Assembly: GCA_964547465.1 (NCBI GenBank)
Contig: CAZJNI010000004.1
Span: 19,927 to 83,926, forward strand
DNA: 64,000 bases
Reading direction: 5' to 3'
Source: an uncultured Gammaproteobacteria bacterium
Lineage (GTDB): Bacteria > Patescibacteriota > Microgenomatia > Daviesbacterales > UBA10151
Shown here piece after piece: positions 2,736 through 57,827 of the stretch; the stretch's first letter is position 1, and the number at the start of each line of letters is the position of its first letter. The position numbers and the translations under genes are program-made. The notes under the pieces are model-generated. The model was not told where the DNA came from. It saw nothing but the letters and a program-made list of their open reading frames with translations, and made no database searches.

Positions 2736-5700
2736 ATGTCTTTACAACTTGTTGATAATAAAACTATACGTAAATCATGGAATAAAGCACCCACTTTAAC
2801 CCCACAGCTAAACTTAATAAAAATTCAACTTGATTCATATAATTGGTTTCTAACAGAAGGTATAAGAGAAGTTTTGGATGAGATTTCCCCGGTTGAGGAT
2901 TTCACCGGCAAAAATTGGTCTTTGGAACTTGGAGGTTTTTCATTTGGTAAACCCAAATATACTCCGGATTTGGCAAAAGAAAAGGGCGTCACATATGACG
3001 CTCCTTTAAAAATTGAGGCTATTTTAGTTAATAAACAAACTGGCGATAGGGGTAAGCAAGAAGTTTTCTTAGGTGATATTCCCCAGATGACCGAGAAAGG
3101 AACCTTCATTATAAATGGGGTAGAAAGAGTCATTATTAATCAATTGGTCCGCTCTCCCGGAGTATTCTTTTCTGCAACTGATGATCCAATTACCGGAAGA
3201 AGGCTTTATTCAGCAGAGGTTAGACCATATAGAGGTTCCTGGTTGGAATTTTCAATTTCCCGAACCGGTGTTTTAACTGCCAAAATAGACAGAAGAAGAA
3301 AATTTGCGGCTACAACCTTACTTCGAGCTTTAGGCTTTTCAGATTCGGAGTCAATAATGCAGCTATTTAGTGATGTGGATACAACTGAAGATAAATATAT
3401 TGAAACAACTTTGAGTAAAGATCCAACCATAAACTCTGATGAAGCTCTTTTGGAAATTTTTAGAAAAATGCGTCCAGGTGATCCGGTTGTTTTGGATAAT
3501 GCCAAAGCTTTACTTGAAGGAATGTTTTTTAACTCCAGACGTTACAATTTAACAAAAGTTGGCAGGTTTAAAATTAACAAAAGACTGGGATTGGATATTG
3601 CAAATACTTTAGAGAATTGGATTTTGACCAATAATGATATTATTGCCACTTTAAAATATTTAATTAAATTAGCAAATGGTGAAGGAAAAGTGGATGATAT
3701 TGACCATTTAGCAAACAGAAGAGTCAGGTGTGCCGGGGAACTGGTACAGCAAAACGCCTTTAGGATCGGAGTTTTGAGACTTGAGAGAATTATTAAAGAG
3801 CGAATGAGCTTAACAACAGCTGATCAAGAACCCACCCCAGGTGGGTTAATTAATGCCAAACCGGTGATTGCTGCTATTAATGAATTTTTCCGCTCATCTC
3901 AACTATCCAGCATTTTGGATCAGGTAAATCCGCTATCTGAATTAGATCATTTAAGAAGATTATCTGTGATGGGTGCAGGTGGGATAACCCGTGATAGGGC
4001 CAGCTTTTCTGTCCGTGATATTAACCATTCTCAATACGGCAGGATTGATCCTATCCGTTCTCCTGAAGGACAAAATATTGGTTTGGTAACCTATTTAGCC
4101 CTTTATGCCAGAATTAATGAGTACGGATTTTTGGAAACTCCATATAGAAGGGTCGTTTTAGAGCGGGGTAAGCCCAGAATGACTGATGATGTAGTGTATA
4201 TTACAGCTGATGATGAAGAAGATTATCATATAACGGAGGCAACAGTTAACACCGATACAAAAGGTAATATTTTAGACGATCGGGTTCCCATCAGATATCA
4301 GGGAAATTTTTTTGAAGGGGAATCTAAACAGGTCTCTTTGATTGATATCTCACCTCAACAAATCTTTGGAACCTCAGCCGCTTTAATTCCATTTTTAGCA
4401 AATGATGATGCAAACAGGGCTTTAATGGGAACTCAAATGCAGTGCCAGGCAGTGCCTCTTCTTAACCCTTCTGCTCCAATTGTTGGAACCGGGATGGAGC
4501 GAATTGTGGCGGATAATATGGGAAGAGTTGTTAGAGCACCTGAAGATGGGGTGATAGTGGCTGTTGATGGTAAAAAACTTATTCTTGAAGGTAGGAAGGA
4601 TGAGTATAAATATGAGATAAAAAAATTTATCCACTCACCTCAAGGAACTTGTTATTCTCAAAAACCGGCTGTAAAGTTAGGACAAAAGATTAAAAAGGGT
4701 GATCTGTTAGTTGATGGTGCAGCTACCCAAAATGGTGAGTTGGCTTTGGGACAAAATCTTCTGATTGCTTACATGAGTTTTGAAGGATTAGGCTATGAAG
4801 ATGCTATTGTAATTTCAGATAGATTGGTTAGGCAGGATCTTTTAACTTCAATCCATATTGAGGAATATGAGGTTGATGTGGTGGAAACAAAGCTTGGACC
4901 GGAAGAACTAACCCGGGATATTCCAAACGTATCTGAAGATGCATTGAGAAACTTAGATGAGCGGGGAATTGTCAGTATTGGTGCTGAAGTTTTGCCAAAT
5001 GATATTTTGGTTGGCAAAGTTCAGCCTAAAGGTGAGACAGAGTTGACTGCCGAAGAAAGGCTGCTTCGTGCAATTTTTGGAGAAAAAGCCAAAGAAGTAA
5101 GAGACACTTCCTTGAGAGTTCCTCATGGAGAAAGAGGTACTGTAATTGGAGTTCAAATTTTATCCAGGGAAGAGGAAGATGAGCTGGATACAGGAACATT
5201 AATGAGAATTAAGGTTAAAGTTGCCCAAATGAGAAAAGTAACTGAAGGAGATAAGCTGGCAGGAAGGCATGGAAATAAAGGGGTTATCTCTCGAATCGTC
5301 CCGGTATCTGACATGCCGCATTTAGAAGATGGAACACCGGTTGATATTATTATTTCTCCCTTGTCTGTTTTATCCCGTATGAATTTAGGACAACTTCTGG
5401 AAACTCATTGGGGTTTTGCTGCAGAAAAATTGGGTTATAAAATTGCCGCCCCGGTTTTTGAGAAAATGCCGGAGGAAATGTTAATTGCCGAGCTTAAAAA
5501 GGCAGGTTTGCCTACTGATGGAAAAGTCAGACTGATCGATGGGAGAACCGGTCAGGCTTTTGATAACACTATTGTGGTTGGTAGAAATTACATCTTAAAA
5601 CTGATCCATATGGTGGAGGAGAAAATTCATGCCCGCTCCACCGGACCATATTCTTTAGTAACTCAACAGCCTTTGGGCGGAAAAGCACAAATGGGAGGAC

Positions 5701-16292: not shown

Positions 16293-16366
16293 GTCATTGC
16301 GAGCCCGAAGGGCGTGGCAATCTTATTAATAAGATCCTCACGTCGCTTCGCTCCTCAGGATGACAA
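16293..16366. repeat. Palindromic MITE-like element copy A (GTCATTGCGAG...CTCAGGATGAC)
   Basis: Shares termini and central GTGGCAATCTTATT/AATAAGAT core with 6 other copies. Confidence 0.8.
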
Positions 16367-17378: not shown

Positions 17379-17460
17379 GTCATTGCGAAGCCACGAAGTG
17401 GCTGTGGCAATCTTATTTCAATAAGATTCCCACGACTTACTTCGTAAGTCTCGGGATGAC
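17379..17460. repeat. Palindromic MITE-like element copy B
   Basis: GTCATTGCGAAGCCACGAAGTGGCTGTGGCAATCTTATT...AATAAGATTCCCACGACTTACTTCGTAAGTCTCGGGATGAC. Confidence 0.8.
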
Positions 17461-17746
17461 TAGTTAATATTTTTGTATAGATCCTTGAGGCTTGGATTAA
17501 ATTTACTAATTAATTTTTCTTTTGCTGCTCTATTCCAACTTTTAATCTGTTTTTCTCGCTCAATCGCAGTTTCTGGGTCATAATAAACTTCATAAAATAG
17601 AAGTTCATGAACCTGATATTTTTGGGTGAATCCTTTTACCAGATTATTTTTATGTTGCCAAACTCTTCTTAATAAGTTATTTGTGATTCCTGTGTATAAC
17701 ACTGTTCTAGTGAAGTTACTTAGGATATAGACATAATATTGTTTCA
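17460..17746 (-). CDS. GIY-YIG nuclease family protein (small, UPF0213-like)
   Basis: YYVYILSN...LYTGITNNLLRRVWQH GIY-YIG motif; ORF track extends to 17852 through a MITE copy, true start likely MKQYYVY. Confidence 0.6.
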
Positions 17747-17764
17747 TAAGATTATTATAGATAG

Positions 17765-17840
17765 GATCGCCACGCTTCGCTCGCGATGACGAGATAATAA
17801 GATTCCCACGGTCCGCCTTTGGCGGACCTCGGAATGACAA
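17765..17840. repeat. MITE-like element copy C (rearranged/right-half-rich)
   Basis: CTCGCGATGAC then AATAAGATTCCCACGGTCCGCCTTTGGCGGACCTCGGAATGAC. Confidence 0.7.
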
Positions 17841-18403: not shown

Positions 18404-19210
18404 ATGATAAGTACATTACTCGGTATAAAAAAGAATATGACCAGCACTTATGATTCTCGTGGCAGAAGAGTCGGGGCAACTGTGGTTGAAATTCAGCCAA
18501 ATTTAGTTACCCAAATAAAGACTAAAGAGGGAAAAGACGGCTACGGGGGGATACAGCTCGGGTTTGGAACAAAAAGGTCTGTTAAAAAACCCCAACTCGG
18601 ACTTGGAAAAAAAATAGGGGTAGATCAACCAATCCGCTGGTTTAGGGAAGTTAAAATTGAAGGAGATCCCTCGACTTCGCTCGGGACTATTCAGCCTGGA
18701 CAAGCAATTACACTTGACCAGGTTTTTTCAATAGGAGACGCAATAAAAGTTCAGGGGACTTCCAAAGGTAAGGGTTTTCAAGGCGGAGTCAGAAGACATG
18801 GCTTCCATGGCGGATCAAGAACCCATGGTCAGTCAGATAGAATGAGAGCCCCAGGAGCGATTGGTTCCGGAACAACTCCGGGAAGAGTTTATAAAGGTAA
18901 AAAAATGGCAGGACATATGGGTAATATTTCTGTTAGCACTAAAAATTTGGAAGTTGTAGGACTGGATAAAGAGAAGAATTTATTGGTTATTAAAGGTGCA
19001 GTTCCCGGAGCAACAGGGGGACTTGTAACATTAACAAAACTTGGTCGGGTTAAAGGTTATACTCCTCCGCCGGAAGAAAAGCCGGATGAAGAAGGTGAAG
19101 GGGAAAGCGTAAAGGGTGAAGAAAAGATAGAAGGTCCACAAGAAACAGTAGCACAGCAACCAGCTGAAGAAGTAAAAACTGAGGAGGTAAAGACAGATGC
19201 CAAGAGTTAA
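18404..19210 (+). CDS. rplC: 50S ribosomal protein L3 with ~55 aa acidic/Lys C-terminal extension
   Basis: MISTLLGIKKNMTS... aligns to L3 N-terminus; ORF opens earlier at 18356 in leader; tail PPPEEKPDEEGEGES...EEVKTEEVKTDAKS. Confidence 0.9.
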   Translation: MISTLLGIKKNMTSTYDSRGRRVGATVVEIQPNLVTQIKTKEGKDGYGGIQLGFGTKRSVKKPQLGLGKKIGVDQPIRWFREVKIEGDPSTSLGTIQPGQAITLDQVFSIGDAIKVQGTSKGKGFQGGVRRHGFHGGSRTHGQSDRMRAPGAIGSGTTPGRVYKGKKMAGHMGNISVSTKNLEVVGLDKEKNLLVIKGAVPGATGGLVTLTKLGRVKGYTPPPEEKPDEEGEGESVKGEEKIEGPQETVAQQPAEEVKTEEVKTDAKS

Positions 19211-20006
19211 AAAAAATTCAAATACTACGTCATTGCGAGCCCGCGAAGCGAGGCGTGGCAATCTCATTAAAAAGATTGCTTTGTCGTCAAAGACTCCTCG
19301 CAATGACAGGAGGATTTCTACCCGAGTCAGTTTATCTGTACCAGTGTGTTCATTAGCAGGTAGAGCTGCTGGAAATTTATCACTCCCTAAAGAATTTTTT
19401 GGAGCAGAGGTTAACAAAAAACTTTTAGCTCAAGCGCTAAGAGTTTATACAACTAATCAAAAAAGTTTAACCGGTAATACTAAAACCCGAGGTGAGGTTG
19501 AAGGGTCAACTGCCAAAATTTACAGACAAAAAGGGACAGGTCGGGCCAGGCATGGTGCAATCAGGGCTCCAATATTTGTTGGAGGAGGAATTACTTTTGG
19601 TCCTAAGGAGAGGAAAGTAAGATTAGATCTCCCCCAAAAAATGAAAAAATCTGCGCTAAAGTCTGCGCTGTCCTCTAAAGTAATAGATAAATCTGTAATG
19701 GGATTGTCTGGAATCGAGAAAGCATCAGGTAAGACAAAAGAAATAGCGAAATTAATGTATCAAGTATCAAGTATCAGGTATCAAGGGAAAGATAAAAAAT
19801 CTAAGAAGATTACCAGTACATTAATTGTAACAGGAGATAAGGTAGATAATATACTTCGTGGAGCTAGAAATATTCCAGGGGTTGATATTTTAACAGTTAA
19901 TTTAATTAATGCTTATGAGGTAGCAAGACATGATTTGCTACTTATTACCAAAGAAGCTGTAGATGTTTTAAGCGGAAAGGGTAAAGCGGAAAGGGTAAAG
20001 TTATGA
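19197..20006 (+). CDS. rplD: 50S ribosomal protein L4 (true start possibly in-frame GTG ~19344 downstream of MITE copy)
   Basis: QKGTGRARHGAIRAPIFVGGGITFGP L4 core; first ~50 codons of ORF are encoded by the MITE copy. Confidence 0.85.
   Translation: MPRVKKNSNTTSLRAREARRGNLIKKIALSSKTPRNDRRISTRVSLSVPVCSLAGRAAGNLSLPKEFFGAEVNKKLLAQALRVYTTNQKSLTGNTKTRGEVEGSTAKIYRQKGTGRARHGAIRAPIFVGGGITFGPKERKVRLDLPQKMKKSALKSALSSKVIDKSVMGLSGIEKASGKTKEIAKLMYQVSSIRYQGKDKKSKKITSTLIVTGDKVDNILRGARNIPGVDILTVNLINAYEVARHDLLLITKEAVDVLSGKGKAERVKL
19229..19307. repeat. MITE-like element copy D (inside annotated 5' end of rplD ORF)
   Basis: GTCATTGCGAGCCCGCGAAGCGAGGCGTGGCAATCTCATT...CTCCTCGCAATGAC. Confidence 0.8.
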
Positions 20007-22966: not shown

Positions 22967-23314
22967 ATGAAAAAACAAGAATTTGTACAAATTAAAGGAT
23001 TAGATATTAAAGAGTTAAAAGCCAAGGTAGTAGCGCTAAAGGATGAAATTGCCAAACTGACAATGGAAAAAAATAGAAAGATATTAAAAGATCTAAAAAG
23101 TATCTTTAAGAAAAGAAAAGATTTAGCTCAAGTTCTAACTGTTTTAAAACAGAAAGAATTATTGGGACAGTTAGAGTCAAGAGTCAAGAATCAAGAGTCA
23201 AGTGAAGAAGTAAAAAGTCAAAATAATACACCCTCCACTAAAGTGGGGCCAAAAGTTAAAGGTATAAGTAAAAAGGAAAAAGTAAAAAAAGGAAAGGAGA
23301 AATCTAGTCCCTAG
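22967..23314 (+). CDS. rpmC: 50S ribosomal protein L29 with 46 aa C-terminal extension identical to the S17 tail
   Basis: L29 core first ~65 aa; extension encoded by 163 bp direct repeat. Confidence 0.8.
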   Translation: MKKQEFVQIKGLDIKELKAKVVALKDEIAKLTMEKNRKILKDLKSIFKKRKDLAQVLTVLKQKELLGQLESRVKNQESSEEVKSQNNTPSTKVGPKVKGISKKEKVKKGKEKSSP

Positions 23315-23335
23315 ACTCTAGTAACTAGTCACTAA
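23173..23335. repeat. 163 bp perfect direct repeat, copy 1 (3' end of rpmC + junction)
   Basis: Identical to 23648-23810. Confidence 0.9.
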
Positions 23336-23338
23336 CTT

Positions 23339-23779
23339 ATGATAGGTCGTGTTACATCAACAAAAATGCAAAAAACAGCGGTTGTTTTAATAGAAAGAAT
23401 AGCAATGCATCCTTTGTATAAAAAAACTTATAAAAGATCTAAAAAGTATTTAGTGGATGATCCAATAGGAGTTAAAGACGGGGATTTGGTGGAGATTATA
23501 AAAGTTAGCCCTATATCTAGAAATAAACATTGGAGGATTATTAAAGTTGTAGGTAAGAATCTGGCCGAGATTGCGGAAGAGAAGCTAAAGGCTCAAGCTG
23601 AAAAGGTGATTTCAGAAGTAATGCCGGAAGAGAAAGTAGAGTCAAGAGTCAAGAATCAAGAGTCAAGTGAAGAAGTAAAAAGTCAAAATAATACACCCTC
23701 CACTAAAGTGGGGCCAAAAGTTAAAGGTATAAGTAAAAAGGAAAAAGTAAAAAAAGGAAAGGAGAAATCTAGTCCCTAG
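23339..23779 (+). CDS. rpsQ: 30S ribosomal protein S17 with long C-terminal extension
   Basis: S17 core (TKMQKTAVV...HWRIIKVV) then extension whose last 46 aa equal the L29 tail. Confidence 0.85.
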   Translation: MIGRVTSTKMQKTAVVLIERIAMHPLYKKTYKRSKKYLVDDPIGVKDGDLVEIIKVSPISRNKHWRIIKVVGKNLAEIAEEKLKAQAEKVISEVMPEEKVESRVKNQESSEEVKSQNNTPSTKVGPKVKGISKKEKVKKGKEKSSP

Positions 23780-23810
23780 ACTCTAGTAACTAGTCACTAA
23801 TTATATGGTT
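23648..23810. repeat. 163 bp perfect direct repeat, copy 2 (3' end of rpsQ + junction)
   Basis: Identical to 23173-23335. Confidence 0.9.
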
Positions 23811-24514: not shown

Positions 24515-24563
24515 CGGACGATCTGAAGGAGATCCTTCGTCGCTAATTGCTCCTCGGGATGAC
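24515..24563. repeat. MITE-like element, right-half copy E
   Basis: ...CCTTCGTCGCTAATTGCTCCTCGGGATGAC. Confidence 0.6.
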
Positions 24564-42286: not shown

Positions 42287-42357
42287 CGGGGAGTAGTATA
42301 GTGGTAACACGCCGCGCTGGGGGTGCGGCATCGGGAGTCCGATTCTCCCCTCCCCGA
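42287..42357 (+). tRNA. tRNA-Pro (anticodon GGG), atypical T-loop TCCGATT
   Basis: Hand-folded cloverleaf: acceptor CGGGGAG/CTCCCCG, D-arm AGTGGTA loop, anticodon stem CCGCG/TGCGG loop CTGGGGG, T-stem GGGAG/CTCCC, discriminator A. Confidence 0.55.
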
Positions 42358-42443
42358 CACAACATGCTATGTATCCATACGTAAGTACGCTAAATAATTT
42401 TGGGGTATTGACACCTTTGGGATATATTTGGTAATTTAAATTT

Positions 42444-43511: not shown

Positions 43512-44002
43512 TGGATTCCCTGGCATTTAAATTACTTCTGAATAAACTCTACAGACTTATCTCTATCAGAGCTAGATCGGAAAAAGAAATCAGAGATTAT
43601 TTAAGGGTAAAGGGTAAAGGGTTAAGGGGAAAGAAAATAGAGATAAATGATAAGATGATTGAGTATCTAATAGATACCCTAAAGCAGCAAAATCTTATTA
43701 ATGATTTAGGGTTTGCTAAAGCTTGGGTGGAATCAAGGAGCAGGAAAAAAGGGATGAGAGTTATCCGGCAGGAGTTATTTCAAAAAGGAATTGACAGGGA
43801 AATTGTGTCAAGTATCATGGGTCAAGTGTCAAGTATAGAAGAACAGAAAACAGCAGAAAAATTGCTTGAAAAAAAATTAAGAGTTTGGAAAAATTTACCC
43901 AATTTAGAATTTAAGAAAAAGGCATATGATTTCTTACTAAGAAGAGGATTTGAATATGGAATAGTGAAAGATGCCATTGAAAATATTATAAAAAAGATGT
44001 AA
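43511..44002 (+). CDS. recX: Regulatory protein RecX
   Basis: Helical repeat protein directly downstream of recA, RecX-like 163 aa. Confidence 0.65.
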   Translation: MDSLAFKLLLNKLYRLISIRARSEKEIRDYLRVKGKGLRGKKIEINDKMIEYLIDTLKQQNLINDLGFAKAWVESRSRKKGMRVIRQELFQKGIDREIVSSIMGQVSSIEEQKTAEKLLEKKLRVWKNLPNLEFKKKAYDFLLRRGFEYGIVKDAIENIIKKM

Positions 44003-44115: not shown

Positions 44116-44200
44116 GTCATTCCGAGCGAATGAAGTTCGCGTGGGAATCTTGATTAATAGGGATTGCCACGTCGCTCGAGGACTCGCTCCTTGCAATGAC
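44116..44200. repeat. MITE-like element copy F (immediately upstream of rny)
   Basis: GTCATTCCGAGCGAATGAAGTTCGCGTGGGAATCTTGATT...CTCGCTCCTTGCAATGAC. Confidence 0.8.
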
Positions 44201-52263: not shown

Positions 52264-53456
52264 TTTGAGTAAAATACCATATTAATGAAATATAAATTGA
52301 TTAAAAATCCAGCTATAGCCAAAGTTAAGAATTTATAAGAAACATTTTTTTTGAATGAATAAAGTAATGCTATAAATAGCATTGGATAAAAATCGATGGC
52401 ATAGCGGTACCCGTATTGCCAGCCGCCATTGGTAAAACTTCCAAAGATAGCAAACATCATAAGTAAAGTTGTAATTCCAGCAAATTTAACCCTTTTATCT
52501 TTCCAGTTACTAAATAAAATCCAGATAAAAATTGAAGAGGTAAATAAGATGCTTAGTCCTGAACCGTCAACTCTTAAATATGGAAATTGCATTATATGTG
52601 TTCCTGGAATAAAAATAGGTTCAGGCATTTTCAAGAACATAGTATAAAGATTTGCCGGAATATGAATTAAACTCCACACACCCAACGTCCTATTGGCAAC
52701 AACTGGTCCACTATTCCATTCCTGCATAGAATAACCAGTTTCTAAAAAATTCCCAAATCGAGCAGAATTATAAATTCCTATTAAGATAAGAGATATAATT
52801 ATAGGTAAAAGTAATAAAGTGAGGTTTTTAAATTTTATTTTTTTAGATAAATCGCAGTAGGATAAGTTTAGTATAAAAAATATTACTGTAAAGATTAAGG
52901 AGATCCTTGTGATGAAAGCTAGCGCTAGATAGATACCGATAATTAGCCATGATCTATTAAAAAAATAAGCCTCTAGACTTAAAAGAGTTAGGGTAAAACC
53001 AACAATTTGTGCAAAGTACCAGGACCATGGTATTAAAGCAATCCCTAAGTATGCAGTAGAAAATAAAATTGCAAAACTTATTATAATAGATTTAGTTAAA
53101 TTACCACTTATTTTTTTAGCAATTCTGATAAGCAATAATACATTCAGTAGGTTTAAAAAAAATAACAAATATCCCTGTCTTATATGATCACCAAATATAT
53201 AAACAAACGGCATGAGTAAAATTGCAGGAAAAGGACCCAATGGCCAGTATTGACGATTTTTGTATAAGGCAGCATCAAAAGTATTTGAGAGAAAATAAAG
53301 CTTGCCTTGAAGGAAAGAAGAAGCGAGGCTTACAAATTGTTCTTGTTGGGGTGAAGTAAAAAGGTCGTAATAAACAAATAATAGAACCCCCAAAATACAG
53401 AAGAATAATATTATAATTCTCTTCATGAATAAAGTATTAGTTATTTTAGGTCCCAC
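52260..53456 (-). CDS. Polytopic membrane protein, GT-C-like glycosyltransferase (paralog)
   Basis: SLASSFLQGKLYF...QYWPLGPFPAILLMPFVYIFG parallels upstream paralog; 5' end overlaps miaA 5' end divergently. Confidence 0.4.
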   Translation of the reverse strand: MGPKITNTLFMKRIIILFFCILGVLLFVYYDLFTSPQQEQFVSLASSFLQGKLYFLSNTFDAALYKNRQYWPLGPFPAILLMPFVYIFGDHIRQGYLLFFLNLLNVLLLIRIAKKISGNLTKSIIISFAILFSTAYLGIALIPWSWYFAQIVGFTLTLLSLEAYFFNRSWLIIGIYLALAFITRISLIFTVIFFILNLSYCDLSKKIKFKNLTLLLLPIIISLILIGIYNSARFGNFLETGYSMQEWNSGPVVANRTLGVWSLIHIPANLYTMFLKMPEPIFIPGTHIMQFPYLRVDGSGLSILFTSSIFIWILFSNWKDKRVKFAGITTLLMMFAIFGSFTNGGWQYGYRYAIDFYPMLFIALLYSFKKNVSYKFLTLAIAGFLINLYFINMVFYSK

Positions 53457-54432
53457 TTCAACAGGGAAAACAGACTTGGCATTAACTTTGGCTAAAAAAT
53501 TTAATGGGGAGTTAGTATCGTGTGATTCCAGACAAGTATATGTGGGACTTGATATAGGGACCGGGAAGATGCCTGGAGTAGATTTAAGATTTAAGAATAA
53601 GGATTTAAGAATAAAAAAGGGAAATAATTGGTGGGAAATAGGTGGAATAAAAATCTGGATGTATGATGTAATATCCCCAAAAAGGCAGTATACAGTTTTT
53701 GATTATGTAAAAGATGCAAATAAGGCAATAGATAAGATTATAAAAAAAGGAAAGCAACCTATTATAGTTGGGGGAACTGGTTTGTATCTGAAGGGGTTGC
53801 TATATGGTTTTCCTAATTTAGGAATTCCGGTAGATAAAAAGTTAAGAAATAACTTAGAAGAGTTAACTTTAGAAGAACTTCAAAAAAACCTTCAAGGATT
53901 TTCTATTCAAAGATGGGAAAAGATGAATAGTTCAGATAGGCAAAATCCCAGAAGATTAGTTAGGGCGATAGAGCTAACTATTTCGTCATTGCGAGGAGCA
54001 AGGCGACGAAGCAATCCATTAAACATATTGCCACGGCCCTTCGGGCCTCGCAATGACATATTAAAAATTGGATTAACTACCTCAAGGGAGATTTTATACA
54101 AAAGAATTGATGAAAGAGTAGTATCTAGAATAAATGAAGGAATGATTGATGAGGCAATAAGACTATATAAAGATGGATTAAGTCTGAAAAGAATGAGACA
54201 GTTAGGGCTTGAGTATGGAGTAATGGCGGATTTTCTGGAAATCAAAATAAGCAGAGATCAATTAATTGAAACTCTGAAGGTAAAAATTCATCACTTTGCC
54301 AAACGTCAAGAAACATGGTTTAAAAAAGAAAAAGATATTAATTGGTTTGATATAGCTAAAAAAAATTATATAAATAAAGTGGAAAATTTGGTGGCTAAAT
54401 GGTATTATCAGGCAAATGCCACGCAAGATTGA
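53425..54432 (+). CDS. miaA: tRNA dimethylallyltransferase with in-frame MITE-derived insertion
   Basis: P-loop GPTSTGKTDLAL, DSRQVY motif; 335 aa. Confidence 0.85.
   Translation: MNKVLVILGPTSTGKTDLALTLAKKFNGELVSCDSRQVYVGLDIGTGKMPGVDLRFKNKDLRIKKGNNWWEIGGIKIWMYDVISPKRQYTVFDYVKDANKAIDKIIKKGKQPIIVGGTGLYLKGLLYGFPNLGIPVDKKLRNNLEELTLEELQKNLQGFSIQRWEKMNSSDRQNPRRLVRAIELTISSLRGARRRSNPLNILPRPFGPRNDILKIGLTTSREILYKRIDERVVSRINEGMIDEAIRLYKDGLSLKRMRQLGLEYGVMADFLEIKISRDQLIETLKVKIHHFAKRQETWFKKEKDINWFDIAKKNYINKVENLVAKWYYQANATQD
53985..54057. repeat. MITE-like element copy G located in-frame inside miaA
   Basis: GTCATTGCGAGGAGCAAGGCGACGAAGCAATCCATT...GCCACGGCCCTTCGGGCCTCGCAATGAC. Confidence 0.8.
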
Positions 54433-55384: not shown

Positions 55385-55391
55385 ATTTTTT

Positions 55392-55715
55392 GCCTAGGAA
55401 GAGGGTAAGCCAGATTCTGTTTCAAGATGATCATTTATCTAGACTGTGATTTTTAATGTCACATCTTCCGCCAGTCGGCGGATGCTCCTTATTTAAACTA
55501 TTAAGCGAGCAGCTTAGTTTTTTCTAGGATTGCAGCGGGGAGGATTGCCACGTTTCACCCGAGCTTGACCCCGGTTCGTCACTGTTGCTCTATACTCTGT
55601 CTTACGACCGTCCGACTTACGCCGGACACCCTGCTCTATGCTGTCTGGACTTTCCTCCCGTTCAAATTTCTTTTAGAAATTTGCGCGGGCGATCATCCTT
55701 CTTCCTAGGCCGATA
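55392..55715 (-). ncRNA. rnpB: RNase P RNA (bacterial type A-like, compact)
   Basis: Minus strand contains GGAGGAAAGTCCAGAC...CATAGAGCAGGGTG (CR-I/P4), GGGTGAAACGTGG (CR-II-like), AACAGAATCTGGCTTA (CR-V/P4 3' strand); P1 GGCCTAGGAAGAAGG/CCTCTTCCTAGGC; upstream TTGAAT-17-TAAAAT promoter at 55722-55751 on minus strand. Confidence 0.75.
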
Positions 55716-57524: not shown

Positions 57525-57827
57525 TCAAAAAAAATTTAGATTCACAATATGATTATTTATTAAAAAATATAGAATAATTTGTGCTCCAATTGCAGCTCCT
57601 GAAAAAGTTAATATCTTTAAAAGATCTTGATGAAGATAGATTACATCGGTAGCTGGCTCGCTTCGCGAAGTGGGTAGCTGGCTCGCTTCGCGAAGTGGGT
57701 AGTCGGTAGTATGGGTAGCTACAGACTGCTTGCTACTAGCTACTGATTCCCGACCATAAAATTGCTGACGGAGAATTTTCAGGCGTTTTTCTAAATCTGA
57801 CTGTTTTTTAGTTTGTTGAATAGCCAT
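57525..57827 (-). CDS. Small single-pass membrane protein containing frame-shifting 25-nt tandem repeat
   Basis: C-terminal TM ILTFSGAAIGAQIILYFLI; repeat 57649-57698. Confidence 0.3.
   Translation of the reverse strand: MAIQQTKKQSDLEKRLKILRQQFYGRESVASSKQSVATHTTDYPLREASQLPTSRSEPATDVIYLHQDLLKILTFSGAAIGAQIILYFLINNHIVNLNFF
57649..57698. repeat. 25-nt direct tandem repeat x2 (GGTAGCTGGCTCGCTTCGCGAAGTG) containing palindrome CTTCGCGAAG
   Basis: Direct inspection. Confidence 0.85.

Follow-up and report, generated by a model that had tools for sequence, protein, structure and literature searches.

In-frame palindromic repeats in the inter-domain linker of MiaA in Daviesbacteria

A repeat family with a copy in frame inside miaA

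We analysed a 64-kb stretch of a Daviesbacteria contig (CAZJNI010000004.1; hereafter the window) in which the gene miaA, encoding tRNA dimethylallyltransferase (335 aa; 53425..54432, + strand), contains a full-length 73-nt palindromic repeat (copy G; 53985..54057). This repeat belongs to a dispersed family, F1, and the open reading frame (ORF) runs through it uninterrupted. We consider it probable that copy G is an ORF-less F1 miniature embedded in miaA, translated as residues 187–211 in place of about 16 codons of an inter-domain linker.

Membership of copy G in F1 was assessed with a hidden Markov model (HMM) built from four other copies of the window (A, B, D and F), with G left out. The model matched G over its full length (model positions 1–80; E=1.4e-11) with 40.2 bits on the minus strand, compared with 23.1 bits on the plus strand, which places the family orientation antisense to miaA. 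Identity between copy G and the other copies is 66–85%. On the plus strand, its terminal inverted repeats (TIRs) are GTCATTGCGAGG (left; 53985..53996) and CCTCGCAATGAC (right; 54046..54057), 12 nt each and perfect. A side hairpin, GGCCC-TTCG-GGCC (54035..54047, +), varies in stem sequence from copy to copy, with a hairpin present in every one. The GC content of copy G is 49%, against 31–36% for the miaA gene and ~36% for the window. Its RNA is predicted to form a long, imperfectly paired hairpin (−31.7 kcal/mol); shuffled sequences average −17.3 (z=−4.8), and none of 200 is as stable.

A preliminary description of this locus, made from the letters alone, had placed the repeat copy entirely within the miaA ORF and in frame with it. 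The ORF is indeed intact, and the predicted translation is exact: 25 codons, S187–D211 (53983..54057, +), read SSLRGARRRSNPLNILPRPFGPRND and start directly 3′ of RLVRAIEL-TI. The last of these codons, GAC, is possibly native or a microhomology, a native GAC being found at the same place in the close homolog P0003. The broader claim of a dispersed inverted-repeat element is supported by the HMM and by TIR counts: allowing up to 2 mismatches, the 12-nt terminus occurs 12 times in the window, compared with 1.9 expected and a maximum of 5 in 100 shuffles.

The window contains five full copies of F1 (A, B, D, F and G), 73–85 nt long and without coding capacity of their own, together with partial copies C and E. 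Their architecture consists of a TIR (consensus GTCAT[TC][GC][CT]GAG...), a variable side hairpin, a central stem (GTGGCAATCT/AGATTGCCAC), a second arm and a closing TIR, and the TIRs are conserved in every copy. Copy A (16293..16364, +) is intergenic, between tuf and rpsJ. Copy B (17379..17460, +) abuts the stop codon of a GIY-YIG nuclease gene, and copy C (17759..17838, −), made of two tandem 5′ half-copies, lies directly upstream of the start codon of that gene. Copy D (19229..19307, +) is in frame near the N-terminus of rplD, 3′ of the conserved MPRVKK start. Half copy E (24524..24563, +) is followed by a second hairpin (to ~24590) in the rplX/rplE intergenic region, and copy F (44116..44200, +) is intergenic between a RecX-like gene and rny. 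A whole-window repeat finder saw only the local inverted repeat of copy G and missed the family, so that motif and HMM searches were needed. A scan for GC islands as a means of finding more in-frame copies was unspecific, copy G itself falling under the threshold.

No target-site duplication was found at copies A, B, D, F or G, where comparison of the flanks gave no direct repeat of even 2 nt. Only 2 of the 21 predicted base pairs of F1 show compensatory changes.

Separately, a 26-nt GC-rich unit, GGTAGCTGGCTCGCTTCGCGAAGTGG, is repeated twice in tandem at 57649-57700 and forms a GCGAAG-loop hairpin that resembles the side hairpins of F1.

Position in the MiaA fold and fate of the native linker

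The host gene encodes a MiaA by domain, fold and key residues. The protein matches the Pfam family IPPT (PF01715; E=2.1e-50) over residues 37–302 and solved MiaA structures in the PDB (E=1.6e-44). An AlphaFold2 model (mean predicted local distance difference test score, pLDDT, 81) retrieved 3d3q, 3exa, 3foz and 2zm5 with Foldseek at E values of 1e-16 to 1e-19. Homologs number in the hundreds in Candidatus Daviesbacteria, the top non-self match being 67% identical. In E. coli MiaA, the P-loop together with the catalytic and tRNA-binding residues comprises T19, K23, T24, D42, K56, R167, R170, R217 and K280 (PMC8234997). Their equivalents in the window (T11, K15, T16, D34, K48, R177, R180, R231 and K293) are all retained, most of them without variation in 30 orthologs. 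As a side observation, the histidine that binds dimethylallyl diphosphate in E. coli (H67) is replaced by isoleucine at residue 77 (window ~53653-53655); this Ile, within a KIWMYD motif, is lineage-wide in Daviesbacteria MiaA, in which the catalytic P-loop, Asp and Arg residues are retained.

In the AlphaFold2 model, a helical block (residues 138–190, its last helix spanning 175–190) is followed by a loop and then by a core strand (211–218). The element-coded segment thus follows the helical insertion domain, and not, as had been proposed, precedes it. R177 and R180, equivalent to the tRNA-binding R167 and R170 of E. coli, sit on the helix just upstream. According to the model, residues 187–211 would form a basic, poorly ordered surface loop between the insertion domain, which they leave at its last helix, and the C-terminal half of the core, which they enter at its first strand. 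The suggestion that the element occupies a permissive surface loop is well founded: pLDDT is 41 at residues 191–200, the segment aligns with the canonical linker, and the site is hypervariable among orthologs.

Two further expectations, that the element adds ~25 aa and that MiaA is ~25 aa longer than typical because of it, did not hold. The linker from RAIE to LKIGL (53973..54060, +) is 29 codons long, and only its first three residues, LTI, and its last, I, come from outside the element. In PDB alignments it is just 3–5 aa longer than the linkers of S. epidermidis, B. halodurans and E. coli MiaA. The excess of the whole protein over E. coli MiaA, ~19 aa, maps mainly to residues 50–67, where a lineage-specific insertion of ~18 aa (GVDLRFKNKDLRIKKGNN...; 53572..53625, +) appears as an 18-residue gap in all three PDB alignments, with pLDDT below 50 at residues 52–60. 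Orthologs without the element hold 20–23 residues in the linker (20 in L003, 21 in P0003). The preliminary description had named, as an outcome that would speak against an insertion, orthologs free of the repeat with an unrelated segment of the same length at this site; unrelated segments do occur there, with 20–23 residues and not 25. Given that only LTI and I are native in the 29-residue linker, about 16 native codons were displaced, with a net gain of 6–9 residues. On these alignments, copy G replaces most of the native linker rather than extending MiaA, and the enzyme would still be functional, as its conserved residues suggest.

These observations bear on a simpler scenario, the recent transposition of a miniature inverted-repeat transposable element (MITE) into a loop, with 25 residues added to a normal MiaA. 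Copy G is complete, its 12-nt TIRs being perfect and its 25 codons in frame, and the F1 copy in ribosomal protein L4 (see below) is a clean net addition relative to its closest ortholog, as this scenario predicts. However, removing the 25 codons from miaA would leave a linker of 4 residues (LTI...I), whereas every MiaA has 16–23 or more; the excess length over E. coli lies elsewhere; and the target site is not duplicated. The same junctions are moreover found in species whose miaA is only ~60–70% identical, which indicates that the junction is not recent. We consider simple transposition very unlikely.

An AT-rich, lysine-rich motif (DLRFKNKDLRIKK / SSKFKIQSSKF / GKGKAERVK / VKGKGLRGK) is in frame in the 53572-53625 segment of MiaA and recurs at 1173-1223 (MltG-like), 19950-20000 (C-terminus of L4) and 43583-43633 (RecX-like). 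In L017, L025 and L062, the AT-rich linker of miaA is likewise filled by strings resembling SKLKxQNSKLQ. This motif may represent a second family of in-frame insertions.

The linker across orthologs and a second case in L4

To place the linker in its lineage, we used 80 miaA loci (~8 kb each) from GTDB species representatives of Daviesbacteria and other Microgenomates, in 75 of which the RAIE–LKIGL segment could be parsed. Most linkers are 20–24 residues long (mode 23) and encoded by AT-rich DNA (GC 0.18–0.36), LxxMNPYI...KYNI being a common canonical type. The nearest species representative, L003, has a 20-residue linker without element (LNINKKKISTQIIKVKKYNI). A subset of crown Daviesbacteria has GC-rich linkers instead (0.42–0.60). 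Full F1 copies occupy the linkers of L081 (=P0002), L001, L015 and L029, with the junctions and register seen in the window. Trimmed 3′ halves of F1 occur in L004, L008, L009 and L027; they keep the 3′ end ...GCT CGC AAT GAC, and the linker is again 21–23 residues long. Other linkers carry other GC-rich sequences. Those termed F2 (SNHxGDPS...QDD) combine the 3′ half of F1 with a further hairpin, as copy E of the window does; F3 and F4 correspond to a single hairpin, CACCTCGGAGGAG...CCATCCGAGGTG, whose arms enclose a loop or nested hairpins and which occurs in either orientation and in two reading frames; F5 linkers contain ...NWIPAYAGMT. When the F1 HMM was run over 638 kb of miaA loci, 5 of 7 matches fell within the ~70-nt linker. 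By regular expression and by eye, repeat-peptide signatures are present in roughly 40 of the 118 closest parsable MiaA homologs.

The F3/F4 hairpin was observed in L002, L005, L010, L012, L013, L016, L026 and L032 (linkers at ~4520-4650 of the loci), with 90–97% identity between species. L012 has a three-way-junction version (−44.8 kcal/mol).

No stop codon or frameshift was found in the linker of ~78 orthologs, including six loci that the parser had missed and that were intact when checked by hand. The frame is thus kept whatever the family, orientation or frame of the repeat, which argues strongly for translation and against a pseudogene or ribosomal bypass. The preliminary description had raised the possibility of a pseudogene in the making. 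More generally, miaA could be decaying, the segment could be an assembly artefact, or ribosomes could skip it as they do the 'byp' elements of yeast mitochondria. The sole point in favour is the a priori oddity of a GC-rich palindrome in so AT-rich a gene. Against this stand the intact ORF, the conserved catalytic and tRNA-binding residues, the open linkers of the orthologs, as translation predicts and bypassing would not require, and the agreement of independent assemblies from other species (L081, L001, L015 and L029), which have the same in-frame arrangement. We regard decay or bypass as extremely unlikely.

From these sequences, we conclude that the linker of MiaA is a soft spot throughout the lineage: GC-rich hairpins of no fewer than four or five families have settled in it, and its length has stayed near the ancestral one.

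How many events produced this pattern is a separate question. The five full linker copies (the window and the four orthologs above) share junctions and derived flanks, (I/L)(S/T)(I/V/T)|...|(I/V/M). Yet the L015 copy is reversed relative to that of the window, with which it shares 85% identity over 78 nt, compared with 65–68% for the miaA flanks and ~0.5 at third codon positions. Likewise, L005 and L010 have F4 hairpins of 93% identity that point in opposite directions. On a rough neighbour-joining tree, the element types are patchily distributed among canonical linkers. One could suppose a single ancient insertion in the ancestor of crown Daviesbacteria, inherited vertically and kept as a useful peptide or hairpin, with no ongoing mobility. 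The identical junctions, frame and flanks fit such a history, as do the common 3′ end of the trimmed remnants, the stable hairpin, and an element better conserved than synonymous sites. It does not readily explain the reversed orientation in L015, nor the difference between the encoded peptides (SSLRGARRRSNPLNILPRPFGPRND vs SSLRAPKGRGNLKTRLLRRFAPRND), from which it follows that what is conserved is not the protein sequence. Lineages with the element are mixed with others whose linkers are canonical and AT-rich (MYPY...KFNI type), the nearest representative lacks the element, and the same site is taken by three or four further hairpin families. We find this history unlikely. The pattern instead suggests turnover at the nucleic-acid level, through re-insertion, flipping or gene conversion, although the number of events cannot be fixed from these data.

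Another possibility is that the hairpin is a functional cis-element of the miaA mRNA or DNA (an RNase site, a translational pause separating the enzyme's two halves or the site of a regulatory protein) and that its coding is incidental. The strong fold is consistent with this, as are nucleotide conservation above that of the flanking codons, the convergence of different hairpin families on one site, and the presence of intergenic F1 copies between highly expressed genes. However, many orthologs, including the nearest, have AT-rich, hairpin-free linkers, orientation is not fixed, and compensatory changes are confined to the two pairs mentioned above. Searching Rfam 15 with copy G, with the GIY-YIG unit and with the full window gave only sub-threshold, chance microRNA matches at the element, and a scan for promoters and terminators in miaA found no site at copy G. 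A cis-regulatory role appears improbable.

At the Rfam gathering threshold, the window yielded only two RNAs: a class A RNase P RNA (123 bits; 55390-55708, −), located just 3′ of an AI-2E transporter gene that itself overlaps the miaA stop codon, and a single tRNA-Pro(GGG) at 42287-42358.

In-frame capture of F1 is not limited to miaA. The rplD ORF (19197-20006), whose Pfam L4 domain starts at residue 62, contains copy D in frame. Nearly all Daviesbacteria L4 proteins start with MPRVKK or MPVKK, and in many of them F1 peptides lie between this start and the conserved LSVPVYSLAGR. The peptide TSLRAPKGRGNL...KTPRND occurs in P0123, P0133, P0134, P0138 and P0146, and SSLRAPKGRGNL...KTPRND is frequent in L4 orthologs; another register, VIASEAKQS..., is used in P0128, P0137 and P0175. 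No F1 peptide is present in P0122, the closest ortholog at 80% identity, relative to which copy D is a clean net addition of ~27 residues. The occurrence of F1 peptides in both MiaA and L4 indicates that in-frame capture is recurrent, as for the palindromic elements of Rickettsia.

The register shared by MiaA and L4 can be accounted for by the sequence of the element. Copies of length 3n+1 (D, F and G) can be read through in the SLR...RND register whichever way they lie. Reading in VIA... always ends at the TGA within the 3′ TIR, and reading in HCE...LAMT is usually stopped by a central TAA or TAG. Since only SLR...RND is stop-free both ways, a survivorship filter accounts for the same register in the two proteins.

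Two further observations concern repeats in these proteins. GC-rich peptides of the types ...NWIPAYAGMT... and ...DSGRAPLARMT... form parts of MiaA linkers in P0016, P0062 and P0086 and C-terminal tails of L4 in P0137, P0142, P0146 and P0195; with such peptides in MiaA and L4 of other Daviesbacteria, the capture of repeats into coding sequence looks widespread. In the window, a 164-nt direct repeat with 100% identity (23172-23335 and 23637-23800) gives L29 (22967-23314) and the adjacent S17 (23339-23779) an identical 46-aa C-terminal tail, ESRVKNQESSEEVKSQNNTPSTKVGPKVKGISKKEKVKKGKEKSSP. Either the duplication is very recent or the assembly is in error here.

A GIY-YIG unit with F1 termini and known parallels

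The GIY-YIG nuclease gene between arms B and C (17463..17747, −; 95 aa; PF01541, E=1e-16) forms with them a candidate parent unit of F1 (~17379-17840). The protein shows a weak match to the UPF0213 structure 1zg2 and no family in NCBIfam; a tblastn search with it against the 80 miaA loci gave no further copies. We therefore turned to 80 metagenomic loci with GIY-YIG homologs (L082-L161), 69 of them usable, and scanned 150 nt on either side of the gene for the TIR motif. The motif was present upstream in 27 of the 69 loci and its complement downstream in 32; in 25, both were present and faced inward, the background rate being 0.03 hits per 150 nt. The layout in these loci is TIR, hairpin, GTGGCAATCT..., ATG...ORF...TAG, ...ATTGCCAC, hairpin, TIR, and in L083, L089 and L119 the central loop of an F1-type palindrome is precisely where the ORF lies. 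GIY-YIG units of other lineages have a variant terminus, GTCATTCTGAGG. With the same termini around an ORF in the central loop, the 73–85-nt copies can be read as ORF-less versions of a ~450-nt unit, and the 73-nt copies look like miniatures of a unit that carries a GIY-YIG gene.

We propose the following course of events. A full-length unit would carry the GIY-YIG nuclease in its central loop, and miniatures would have been spread or refreshed by repair of nuclease-induced breaks or by gene conversion, rather than by cut-and-paste through a transposase. One such miniature, copy G, would have become embedded in the miaA of a Daviesbacteria lineage, in the one register that is stop-free both ways, replacing ~16 codons of an ancestral linker of 20–23 aa. 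Only insertions in the open register and at structurally tolerant sites would have survived. Break repair or gene conversion would account for the lack of target duplications, the lost target DNA and the identical junctions with opposite orientations, as well as for elements better conserved than synonymous sites.

Several points weigh against this explanation. The predicted translation and the junctions are read from assembled sequence. A single old insertion with later flipping fits the shared junctions and flanks as well as repeated insertion does, and the neighbour-joining tree is unbootstrapped, which makes the number of independent gains uncertain. F1 copies are all 66–85% alike pairwise and do not cluster by genome or locus, so that gene conversion is not demonstrated. 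The F3/F4 hairpin was found nowhere in the ~8-kb loci except in miaA linkers and may thus not be a dispersed repeat. The homing of a GIY-YIG gene into pre-existing palindromes is equally compatible with the layout of the units, in which case the mobility of the miniatures would be unexplained. Finally, to our knowledge, and according to our literature searches, which returned no matches, proteins of the UPF0213/YhbQ type have not been reported as mobile.

The closest known parallel to copy G is the Rickettsia palindromic elements (RPEs; Ogata et al. 2000, 2002), palindromic repeats translated in frame within proteins (PMC10969869). Like F1, RPEs are short palindromes of several families, dispersed in genic and intergenic positions of a small AT-rich genome, and they lie in frame in unrelated housekeeping genes, where they are translated at tolerant surface positions. 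F1 shows this hallmark in the MiaA linker and in the N-terminal extension of L4. The likeness to RPEs drawn in the preliminary description was therefore apt, and we treat F1 as an analogue, not as an RPE. RPEs measure ~100–150 nt compared with 73–85 nt for F1, whose host is a Daviesbacteria member of the candidate phyla radiation (CPR) and whose sequence has no Rfam match. Unlike RPEs, F1 in miaA replaces a native linker, and one linker has been colonised by several families across species. F1 termini are common to the GIY-YIG unit, whereas RPEs have no known parent gene.

Bacterial MITEs, including Correia/NEMIS and ERIC, have been reviewed (PMC10969869). They share with F1 a small size, the absence of coding capacity, TIRs, many copies, occasional in-frame intragenic fusions and a longer coding relative with the same ends. 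In these respects the initial label of MITE was justified. It fits less well in that F1 leaves no target-site duplication at its five full copies, has lost target DNA at miaA, and has as its coding relative a 95-aa GIY-YIG nuclease, where MITEs have a DDE or other transposase. No transposase with F1 TIRs was seen in the window or the GIY-YIG loci; the only coding unit, in the window and in 25 of 69 loci, was the GIY-YIG one.

Repetitive extragenic palindromic sequences (REPs), their clusters (BIMEs) and the associated RAYT genes (REPtrons) resemble F1 in that GC-rich imperfect palindromes are scattered in intergenic regions and, in inverted copies, bracket a small gene of nuclease type. However, the gene bracketed by F1 is a GIY-YIG gene (PF01541) and that of REPtrons a Y1 (IS200-like) transposase. 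REPs are 20–40 nt and extragenic, whereas F1 is about twice as long, a composite of three stems, and also found inside genes. F1 is not a REP/RAYT system.

Yeast mitochondria contain mobile GC clusters, with in-frame clusters in var1, and Magnusiomyces carries 'byp' elements. These are, like F1, GC-rich palindromic mini-elements of an AT-rich genome that occur inside protein genes. The ribosome skips byps, and these can be out of frame, whereas the frame of F1, in a bacterial host, is always kept, which argues for its translation. Free-standing GIY-YIG homing endonucleases are known from phages (SegA-G, I-TevI type). They resemble the F1 unit in being small nuclease genes that apparently travel with defined flanks, and spread by break repair would leave no target duplication. 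The protein of the F1 unit differs in consisting of a bare predicted catalytic domain of the UPF0213/YhbQ type, with no recognisable DNA-binding domain, and its gene lies in a palindrome and not in an intron or between phage genes.

Literature searches, of incomplete coverage, found no description of the F1 family, of in-frame repeats in CPR bacteria or of GIY-YIG genes in palindromes. These searches, one of them by TIR sequence, gave only primer coincidences and reviews of RPEs and MITEs. For the MiaA linker, the literature offered a domain overview and a list of tRNA-binding residues, with no residue-level description of the linker.

Selfish palindromes in frame in housekeeping proteins have so far been essentially a Rickettsia curiosity; they are now also seen in a CPR lineage. 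The alternation of several hairpin families in a linker of constant length is a natural experiment on how foreign sequence is tolerated and trimmed, and the link between palindromes and a GIY-YIG gene points to a candidate, open to testing, for the activity that mobilises such repeats and that has long been missing. In practice, F1-type repeats create spurious or extended ORF calls (...SLRGAKRRSNL..., ...APRND...), which inflate the apparent protein novelty of CPR metagenome bins. More tentatively, F1 and its relatives could be a so far undescribed mobile element, a palindromic shell with a UPF0213-type GIY-YIG gene in its loop that is spread or homogenised by break repair and whose miniatures have been recruited repeatedly in CPR bacteria as linkers, N-terminal extensions and tails. 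If so, protein evolution in the style of RPEs would be general in AT-rich reduced genomes, and the MiaA linker would be a hot spot for multiple families.

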